NCBI RefSeq assembly: GCF_003790525.1
Contig: NZ_CP033635.1
Length of the DNA: 64,000 nucleotides
Direction: 5' to 3' (one strand)
From: Escherichia coli
GTDB lineage: Bacteria > Pseudomonadota > Gammaproteobacteria > Enterobacterales > Enterobacteriaceae
In this document: positions 32,596 to 32,920 of the stretch, piece by piece
How positions within the stretch are numbered: the first letter of the stretch is position 1
Layout: each line of letters begins with the position of its first letter
The notes under the pieces: model-generated
Told to the model about the DNA's origin: nothing
What the model saw: the letters and a program-made list of their open reading frames with translations, nothing else
Database searches by the model: none
Program-made: the position numbers and the translations under genes

Positions 32596-32920
32596 GACGC
32601 CGGATGCAGCCTGCATACGGGCACAAACATAAAAATATGTGCGAACTCGTAGGCCTGATAAGACGCGTCAGCGTCGCATCAGGCGTTGTGCACCGATAGC
32701 CGGATGCGGCGTAAACCCTTATCCGGCCTACAAACGGGCACACCCATAAAAACAGGCGCGGACCCGTAGGCCTGATAAGACGCGTCAGCGTCGCATCAGG
32801 CGTTGTGCACCGATAGCCGGATGCGGCGTAAACGCCTTATCCGGCCTACAAACGGACACACGCATAAAAACAGGTGCGGACTCGTAGGCCTGATAAGACG
32901 AGACAGCGTCGCATCAGGCA
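32596..32920. repeat. BIME array: about three tandem copies of a ~118-bp unit built from paired REP palindromes
   Basis: Repeated unit CGTAGGCCTGATAAGACGCGTCAGCGTCGCATCAGGCGTTGTGCACCGATAGCCGGATGCGGCGTAAACGCCTTATCCGGCCTACAAACGG... seen three times with minor differences. Confidence 0.8.

Follow-up and report, generated by a model that had tools for sequence, protein, structure and literature searches.

A tandem BIME-2 array between lfgJ and lfgK in the Flag-2 locus of Escherichia coli SMS-3-5

We analyzed a 64,000-nucleotide stretch of DNA (the window) that matches Escherichia coli SMS-3-5 at 100% identity (NC_010498.1; the window position is 315042 minus the record position). The window includes the complete Flag-2 (lateral flagella) locus, which runs from lafU/dinB to lfhA/rayT/yafL. 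Within this locus, the genes flgI, lfgJ, lfgK, and flgL lie in this order on the minus strand, with a gap of 420 bp between lfgJ and lfgK. lfgJ is the final gene of the rod/hook operon (its stop codon is at 32936-32938), and lfgK is the first gene of lfgKL:

32936-33235, minus strand: lfgJ, the Flag-2 rod-binding protein (99 aa, FlgJ N-terminal type), identified from its open reading frame, from NCBIfam matches of the FlgJ type, and from RefSeq ("rod-binding protein")
31139-32515, minus strand: lfgK (flagellar hook-associated protein FlgK), identified from TIGR02492 (351 bits) and RefSeq

About 321 bp of the gap is taken up by a repeat. The repeat is wholly extragenic: it lies between the stop codon of lfgJ and the start codon of lfgK, and no annotated CDS overlaps it. 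An open reading frame of 72 aa (32525-32743, minus strand) was dismissed as coding; it lies inside the repeats and carries no annotation.

Tandem Repeats Finder reported the repeat at 32609-32919, with a period of 117, 2.6 copies, 91% matches, and a score of 524. A gap-free repeat search found three copies, at spacings of 117 and 118 bp. We located REPs with a Hamming scan and scored the identities of Y and Z2 elements against published reference sequences (PMC11208160); spacers and linkers were delimited by dissecting alleles. The array comprises about three units of 117/118 bp. Three of its REPs are Z2 and three are Y; of the Y REPs, two are intact and one is internally deleted. From lfgJ towards lfgK, its parts are:

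32920-32935, minus strand: spacer of 16 nt that leads from the stop codon of lfgJ to the first REP, similar to an S linker (allele dissection)
32884-32919, plus strand (GTAG-headed form): Z2 REP number 3, 34/36 to the published Z2; RNA hairpin of -17.3 kcal/mol, z -4.6
32850-32883: long linker of the l class, 34 nt, tail-to-tail (from CTAC of Y to GTAG of Z2) (allele dissection)
32816-32849, minus strand (GTAG-headed form): Y REP, 34/34 to the published Y; hairpin of -19.5 kcal/mol, z -3.7
32802-32815: short S linker, 14 nt, head-to-head (allele dissection)
32766-32801, plus strand: Z2 REP number 2, 35/36; hairpin of -21.4 kcal/mol, z -6.7; inside the naRNA4 match at 32769-32846
32732-32765: long linker, 34 nt (allele dissection)
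32699-32731, minus strand: Y REP of 33 nt, which has lost 1 nt near the loop, 33/34; weaker hairpin, z -2.2
32685-32698: S linker, 14 nt (allele dissection)
32649-32684, plus strand: Z2 REP number 1, the closest to the promoter, 35/36; inside the naRNA4 match at 32652-32728
32599-32648: decayed edge of the array, consisting of a Y with an internal deletion of 18 nt (about 32599-32622; GCCGGATGCAGC/CTGCATACGGGC) and then a long linker

The period of 117 and the Y and Z2 identities bear out the sequence-only reading, which had proposed that about three tandem units of roughly 118 bp, made of paired REP palindromes, fill the space between lfgJ and lfgK. BIME-2 elements are defined by z2 and y, in tandem copies, with an S linker, with s, l, or r flanks, and with a copy number that varies among strains (PMC3333891, Ton-Hoang et al.). 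At the sequence level, the array shows Y with Z2 (not Z1), alternating orientation, an S linker, tandem copies, and an extragenic position, in the repeating layout <Z2-14 nt-Y>-34 nt-<Z2. It is a classical E. coli BIME-2, located in the 3' UTR of lfgJ and directly upstream of the likely lfgKL promoter.

Each of the intact REPs folds as a bulged hairpin (-14 to -21 kcal/mol), with a stem of 7-8 bp, a bulge, and a further stem of 4-5 bp, while GUAG and CUAC stay unpaired. In the lfgJ transcript, for instance, Z2 REP number 3 reads GCCUGAUGCG...CCUAC. The truncated Y at the edge has lost the REP fold (z -0.85). The fold of the whole gap reaches -195 kcal/mol, as compared to -156 for shuffled sequences (z -6.6). 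An inverted-repeat finder reported none in the array, because the bulge breaks the REP stems into pieces shorter than the finder's 9-nt seed.

On the transcribed strand, the Rfam model for naRNA4 (RF02564; gathering score 59.5) matches the array twice, at 32769-32846 (87.9 bits) and at 32652-32728 (75.1 bits). We considered whether the units might be genes for naRNA4-like nucleoid-associated RNAs that condense the chromosome together with HU. That two units exceed the gathering score would fit with this, as would the original model of nucleoid condensation (PMC4550694). However, the RF02564 family is simply a Y+Z2 unit of BIME-2, and REP325 and its naRNAs were found to have no effect on nucleoid volume, nor were REP-REP contacts seen (bioRxiv 10.64898/2026.03.23.713779). 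Such a role is already largely refuted for REP325, which is the type element, and it is extremely improbable for the array.

The array might instead act at the level of DNA, as a BIME-2 site where DNA gyrase binds and cleaves and so eases supercoiling between two transcription units. Strong binding of gyrase to BIME-2 arrays has been reported (Espeli and Boccard 1997, as cited in PMC2817692), and the architecture here is that of a canonical BIME-2. But no sequence feature sets this array apart from any other BIME-2, and we consider this explanation unlikely.

The Flag-2 locus also has, at its edge and 27 kb from the array, a single-copy gene for the REP-associated transposase, between yafL and flhA (lfhA). 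It has REPs on both sides:

59968-60465, minus strand: rayT (REP-associated tyrosine transposase, TnpA_REP), 165 aa, identified by NF047646 (175.4 bits versus a cutoff of 80) and RefSeq ("rayT")
59880-59955: REP pair on the lfhA side of rayT, with a Y at 59880-59913 and a degenerate, Z1-like REP at about 59930-59955 (Hamming scan and comparison to references)
60561-60644: BIME-2 unit on the yafL side of rayT, with a Z2 at 60561-60596 and a degenerate Y at 60611-60644 (Hamming scan; naRNA4, 60.4 bits)

The translation of rayT carries the HUH motif (as HMH) and YxxNP, in keeping with a Y1 HUH transposase from the RAYT clade. A Pfam scan of the protein gave no match, while the NCBIfam model did match. 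The unit on the yafL side is also the third naRNA4 match (60564-60641, at 60.4 bits just above the gathering score of 59.5), and its sequence agrees with the REPs that are listed for the E. coli RAYT in PMC2817692. REP clusters had been proposed on both sides of rayT (59855-59967 and 60561-60643), and our coordinates agree to within a few bases. The proposed association of RayT with REPs also holds, but it is published knowledge (PMC2817692, PMC3333891) and not a discovery: tnpA_REP lies between yafL and fhiA, with BIME-2 on both sides, in 74 of 110 genomes from E. coli and Shigella, an arrangement known as the REPtron (PMC3333891; PMC2817692). The array belongs to the REP/BIME population that is associated with the RayT gene. 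It is possible that RayT takes part in changes of the array's copy number, by analogy with the in vitro models in PMC3333891; the published activity of TnpA_REP comprises cleavage and strand transfer in vitro only (PMC3333891). Within the Flag-2 locus, REPs also occur in the flgF-flgG and flgG-flgH gaps (single REPs) and downstream of lafA, and there is a BIME-1 at 44716-44812.

We then compared the array across strains. Across 5,425 E. coli genomes, the median number of places that match this repeat family is 29 per genome, and coverage statistics from repeat-containing queries are inflated, as one unit in a record aligns to several units of the query. Gap lengths were therefore taken as the span in the record between matches to queries that contain only the unique flanks. 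With these queries, the site was found in 1,279 of 5,426 complete E. coli genomes, and lengths were taken from two evenly spaced samples. In the first sample, with 59 full-length records, 52 gaps were of 175-205 bp, four were of 420/421 bp, and there was one each of 383, 303, and 253 bp. The second sample, with 58 records, had 50 gaps of 175-189 bp, four of 420/421 bp, two of 253 bp, and two of 91 bp; one further genome was split by an insertion. Among Escherichia, we saw alleles with 0, 1, 2, 3, and 6 units. So, the comparison of array lengths that had been proposed showed that the length is not invariant, and it did not refute the sequence-only reading.

About 88% of the sampled Flag-2 genomes have one unit. 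This commonest allele is a single Y-linker-Z2 unit, whose linker is 13, 20, or 34 nt long. The 303-bp allele has two units of 118 bp, and the 420/421-bp allele has three. The 383-bp allele (strain W619) also has three units, but these are of 97 bp and are built on the short 13-nt linker, which is tail-to-tail in E8 and W619; it is therefore an independent expansion. The 253-bp allele is a single unit whose Z2 holds a 71-bp remnant of an IS621 end. Z2 REP number 3 includes, on the minus strand, the IS621 target ATCAGGCCTAC, and in other strains IS621 is inserted at this target within a Z2 REP. Finally, the two E. coli genomes with a 91-bp gap have no BIME. The 16-nt spacer (32920-32935) and the end of the leader form a direct repeat that brackets a single BIME unit, and the 91-bp allele corresponds to the loss of exactly one unit between such flanking direct repeats (CCGAACGCCG). 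Within O111:H8 this loss is recent, because other O111:H8 strains have 182 bp.

Three units are present in at least 60 genomes from two lineages, as found by a best-first search. The first group comprises 31 SMS-3-5-like genomes with a span of 1020 bp and at least 99.4% identity; the second, with another flank lineage, comprises at least 28 genomes with a span of 1021 bp and 94.2% identity. Neither group showed any variation in length among the matches listed, so the array is polymorphic between lineages but stable over short time scales. The largest array is from the cryptic-clade Escherichia MOD1-EC7003, where the gap is 794 bp and holds six 118-bp units. Units 2 and 5 are identical, as is characteristic of the duplication of a three-unit block.

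All of the long-linker expansions share the truncated promoter-proximal Y, and the same truncation of the edge Y is present in MARGA_4, YA-1, and Escherichia sp. MOD1-EC7003. This suggests that the long-linker expansions had a common founder and that the number of units changed afterwards. Together with the 97-bp units, the alleles show at least two independent expansions, one of 118-bp and one of 97-bp units. As judged from the exact loss of a unit and the duplication of a block, the changes in copy number look homology driven, by recombination between repeats or by slippage.

The spacing between lfgJ and the array is constant: in all of the alleles that we dissected, the first Z2 hairpin starts 16 nt past the lfgJ stop codon. 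This raises the idea that a REP so close to the stop codon lowers the synthesis of LfgJ by stalling the terminating ribosomes. Liang, Rudd and Deutscher (in Mol Cell, 2015) are said to have described such a stalling mechanism for REPs that lie within 15 nt of a stop codon. The spacing here is just beyond that limit, and we think it rather improbable that the array acts in this way.

On the other side of the array, the remaining part of the gap contains two promoter-like motifs:

32547-32575, minus strand: candidate promoter of lfgK, of the sigma28 (LafS) type, TTAAGATT-N11-CGCCGCTTTT, conserved in orthologous loci
32581-32595, minus strand: sigma54-like TGGCAC-N5-TTAC, which abuts the array and in our judgment is no conserved promoter

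The sigma28-type motif is 23 bp from the edge of the array and begins 60 nt upstream of the ATG of lfgK. We collected orthologous loci with a scan for LfgK, with one genome per species. The motif TTAAGAA(T/C)-N11-CGCCGCT(T/C)TT is kept in Escherichia, Pseudocitrobacter, Citrobacter, Leminorella, and Enterobacter, while the sequence of the spacer varies; the promoter shared by other genera is TTAAGAA-N11-CGCCGCTTT. The motif thus has a TAAAG-like -35 and a -10 that contains GCCG, at a fixed spacing. Motifs of a similar, sigma28-like type also lie upstream of lfgM and lafA. The genes flgKL_L and flgMN_L and the flagellin gene are under the control of the lateral sigma28 (FliA_L) in Plesiomonas (PMC11242183). 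A candidate lfgK promoter had been noticed at the edge of the array, and given its conservation across five genera, we accept it as a candidate class 3 promoter of the sigma28 (LafS) type, as the homology to Plesiomonas also suggests. No sigma70 promoter was found in the lfgJ-lfgK gap.

The sigma54-like motif might instead be a LafK-dependent promoter of lfgK that was brought or created by the BIME. There are bona fide-looking sigma54 motifs (TGGCAC-N5-TTGC) before lfgB, lafB, and one other gene of the locus, and GGCAC is retained in the E. coli alleles. However, the -12 element at the array is TTAC and not TTGC, and the motif is absent from every REP-free genus and from Escherichia sp. MOD1-EC7003. 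A similar GGCAC is present in the S or flank motifs of BIMEs such as REP325, and it is the sigma28-type motif that is conserved. A sigma54 promoter at this position is very unlikely, and we rejected it because the motif is not conserved outside of the alleles that bear the BIME.

The orthologous loci also indicate what the gap was like before the BIME arrived. REP-free gaps between lfgJ and lfgK are 97-100 bp in Citrobacter, 83 bp in Phytobacter, 89 bp in Leminorella, 83-90 bp in Enterobacter, 89 bp in Mangrovibacter, and 85 bp in E. whittamii; across the other genera, they range from 66–100 bp. In Pseudocitrobacter, a BoxC-like repeat occupies the position of the BIME. Because the promoter is conserved and the gap is free of REPs in other genera, the operon boundary predates the BIME. 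The BIME inserted between the stop codon of lfgJ and a promoter that already existed, and did not split the operons. The sequence-only reading had presented the array as dividing the rod/hook operon from lfgKL and had proposed that REP expansion shaped the intergenic regions of the locus. The broader proposal stands insofar as REPs are found in several other gaps of the locus; the division between the two operons was not created by the BIME, as Citrobacter, Phytobacter, Leminorella, Enterobacter, and E. whittamii have kept both the sigma28-type promoter and a short gap that is free of REPs.

What might the array do? We weighed a role in transcription and RNA stability, which the sequence-only reading had suggested (a terminator or mRNA-stability element) and for which the best guide is REP325, an array between yjdM and yjdN of E. 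coli K-12. REP325 raises the level of the upstream yjdM mRNA and cuts that of the downstream yjdN by about 8-10-fold; the effect is partly Rho dependent and is accompanied by a ladder of RNAs that end in hairpins (bioRxiv 10.64898/2026.03.23.713779). Across the genome, tandem gene pairs that are separated by REPs show expression that is biased towards the upstream gene, and the effects of REPs depend strongly on context (bioRxiv 10.64898/2026.03.23.713779). By analogy, when the rod/hook operon is transcribed, five stable RNA hairpins from the array would block 3'-to-5' exonucleases, and this block would stabilize the upstream lfgB-J message. The hairpins would also attenuate read-through into lfgKL, in part through Rho, and the expression of lfgKL would then depend to a larger degree on the sigma28 promoter of these genes. 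The attenuation would be expected to grow with the number of units. We rejected an intrinsic (Rho-independent) terminator: the REP hairpins are followed by CUAC and a linker, with no run of U, and a search for the signature of intrinsic terminators gave one weak site in a linker, versus 0.9 expected by chance. Taken as a whole, the explanation that we favor, namely a BIME-2 array that belongs to the REP/RayT population and acts as a stabilizer and attenuator like REP325, is very probable; the analogy to REP325 makes its functional part plausible.

According to the main rival, the array is selfish DNA that is effectively neutral at this site: a non-autonomous repeat that settled where it is tolerated, after a stop codon and before a promoter, whose copy number drifts and which has no selected role in the expression of flagellar genes. 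None of the other genera has the element, nor does E. whittamii, and it was cleanly lost from two E. coli genomes, recently within O111:H8. As the 91-bp alleles of E. coli have no BIME and all other genera lack it, the array is dispensable for the locus. Furthermore, the same spot is occupied in Pseudocitrobacter by a BoxC-like repeat that is unrelated, and in other E. coli by IS621; the copy number spans 0 to 6, and the promoter-proximal Y is decayed. On the other hand, the length does not vary inside either lineage (1020 bp in 31 genomes, 1021 bp in at least 28), and REP hairpins measurably affect neighboring genes where this was tested (bioRxiv 10.64898/2026.03.23.713779). Neutrality is also compatible with a biochemical effect, so it does not truly exclude the explanation that we favor. 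We give neutrality somewhat less than even weight; the roles via gyrase, naRNAs and HU, or translation near the stop codon are lesser rivals. Against a role as stabilizer and attenuator, the Flag-2 system is not known to be expressed in most E. coli.

A bolder form of the stabilizer and attenuator explanation is that the number of BIME-2 units (0 to 6) is a heritable rheostat that varies among strains and insulates lfgKL from class 2 read-through, which would tie the synthesis of the hook-filament junction to the completion of the hook-basal body. The handful of bases 3' of lfgJ would also be a recurrent landing pad for small mobile elements of three unrelated kinds: BIME-2, the BoxC-like repeat, and IS621. 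This is speculative, and we doubt that it is correct.

These results explain the unannotated 420-bp gap in the Flag-2 locus of SMS-3-5 as a standard BIME-2 array and locate the likely sigma28 promoter of lfgKL. Beyond annotation, their significance is slight: the kind of element was already known, and the array, the REPtron, and the polymorphism of copy number among strains are all textbook. The sequence-only reading was accurate in its observations and, for the most part, right in its interpretation. Still, the natural allelic series (0, 1, 2, 3, or 6 units, two types of linker, and forms disrupted by IS621) could be used to test, in a second genetic context, the dual role of REP arrays as attenuators and stabilizers that was recently proposed. 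The array also supplies three natural target sites for IS621, which encodes a bridge recombinase.

Among known systems, the array's best BLAST match in K-12 is REP325 (the naRNA1-6 array, which separates yjdM from yjdN). Both are BIME-2 elements that lie between co-directional genes in the same orientation relative to transcription, and their REPs are nearly identical; the Rfam model for naRNA4 is one Y+Z2 unit of REP325. The head-to-head S linker is 13 nt in REP325 and 14 nt in the array. REP325 has six units of 100 bp with a tail-to-tail linker of 17 nt, whereas the array has about three units of 118 bp, a 34-nt linker, and a decayed terminal Y. Also, lfgK has its own conserved sigma28-type promoter, so lfgJ and lfgK belong to two operons, while yjdMN is a single operon. 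More generally, REPs that stabilize or attenuate operon transcripts (such as malE-malF and the partially Rho-dependent REP terminators) share with the array a bulged, GC-rich hairpin that lacks a U-tract and lies between cistrons or in a 3' UTR; this likeness draws on bioRxiv 10.64898/2026.03.23.713779 and on established knowledge.

In terms of the BIME-2 family (Gilson/Bachellier/Hofnung), the array shows no substantive difference from the description as it is summarized in PMC3333891. The K-12 module between yaaX and yaaA, which is Y-35 nt-Z2, has a linker of comparable length to the 34 nt of the array. We rejected the idea that the long linker is a conserved "l" sequence, as its alignment to the long yaaX-yaaA linker is no more than loose; this loose similarity is consistent with the published statement that BIME-2 linkers vary. 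Lastly, the E. coli REPtron (rayT/yafM/tnpA_REP) is the same here as published, in its gene, its position, and its flanking Y and Z2 REPs (PMC3333891, PMC2817692). Its neighbor differs: in SMS-3-5 it is an intact lfhA (697 aa, FHIPEP), while in K-12 it is fhiA, a remnant from the deletion of Flag-2.

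In the genera whose lfgJ-lfgK gap is free of REPs, an inverted repeat, GCGGC...GCCGC, lies 60-100 nt upstream of lfgK (comparison loci L018-L035, from other genomes). Its 5' arm falls around the -35 box and spacer of the sigma28-type promoter and pairs with the GCCGC of the -10 box, with TTTT next. Changes in one arm appear to be compensated in the other, as with GCGGCTT/AAGCCGC in Citrobacter sp. FP75. In these genera, the repeat and its TTTT could be a weak terminator of the rod operon that overlaps the sigma28 promoter. E. coli does not have the promoter-adjacent 5' arm. The truncated Y remnant at the SMS-3-5 array edge (window 32603-32615) has the sequence ATGCAGCCTGCAT, which makes a new, perfect palindrome of 6 bp. 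MARGA_4 and YA-1, with the same Y truncation, have ATGCGGCGTACAT instead, a difference of three positions.

REPs also occur elsewhere in the window, both within the rod operon and outside it:
26809-26888, Y REP and then a separate GC-rich hairpin, directly 3' of the lafA stop codon
29158-29194, hybrid Y/Z-like REP, between a 325-aa ORF and a convergent transcriptional regulator gene
35053-35088, single REP in the flgG-flgH gap
35919-35952, single REP in the flgF-flgG gap
44716-44812, BIME-1-type pair: a Z1-like REP, a 34-nt AT-rich linker and an inverted Y REP

Across the upstream flanks of L016-L035, all the genera examined carry a hairpin at one shared position in the flgG-flgH gap, but the sequences are unrelated. 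In Escherichia it is a REP; Citrobacter and Leminorella have other palindromes there, and the hairpin of Enterobacter resembles a terminator. The pattern hints that selection favors an intercistronic hairpin 3' of flgG. The Escherichia REP in this gap holds an additional palindromic insert, about 120 bp long, in E. whittamii and in strain d1-58.

The GC-rich hairpin after lafA, AACAACACCGCC-TGCG-GGCGGTGTTGT with the short T-rich tail GCTTT, looks like the lafA terminator, and a perfect sigma54 promoter for lafB/fliD (TGGCAC-N5-TTGCC) comes next. The BIME-1-type pair lies in the Flag-2 variable region, between a hypothetical gene and a glycosyltransferase gene, and its linker includes a near-match to an IHF site. 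The 325-aa ORF (29201-30178, - strand), downstream of flgL, is annotated as hypothetical and had no match in Pfam or NCBIfam. Two other features are unrelated to the array. One is an Rfam match to isrC, an Hfq-binding sRNA (94 bits, 1-90, - strand), which is truncated where the window begins; the other is a tRNA gene (8330-8402, - strand).

The window also contains BoxC-like repeats, GGGAGAGGGTTAGGGTGAGGGG and variants:
42102-42211, lafK-lfiM gap
53409-53428, 5' of the glycosyltransferase gene
63850-63869, close to the window end

In Pseudocitrobacter (L025 and L026), a BoxC-like repeat occupies the lfgJ-lfgK gap where E. coli has the BIME, and E. whittamii retains what looks like the scar of one.

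The lfgJ-lfgK gap can also lack a BIME entirely: it is just 91 bp (701-791 of L065 and L066) in O111:H8 strain 8E and chicken strain E14. Compared with L003, this is the single-unit allele with precisely one 91-bp unit removed; 10-bp direct repeats flank that unit. A 182-bp allele is present in other O111:H8 strains.

IS621 is a bridge-RNA recombinase element of the IS110 family. Two other strains carry it in this gap, and in the 253-bp allele (three sampled genomes) all that is left of it is a 71-bp end remnant:
L004 (E. coli OkiPb01712), 200-1500, IS621 insertion
L067 (strain d1-58), 1033-2500, IS621 insertion
L008 (PV0838), site of the remnant

The SMS-3-5 array holds three intact copies of the target, and the window has a further one:
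32649, 32766 and 32884, - strand, array
44734, + strand, further target

Both insertions lie precisely at GTAG^GCCTGAT of a Z2 REP, which is the natural IS621 target published as ATCAGGCCTAC (PMC11208160).
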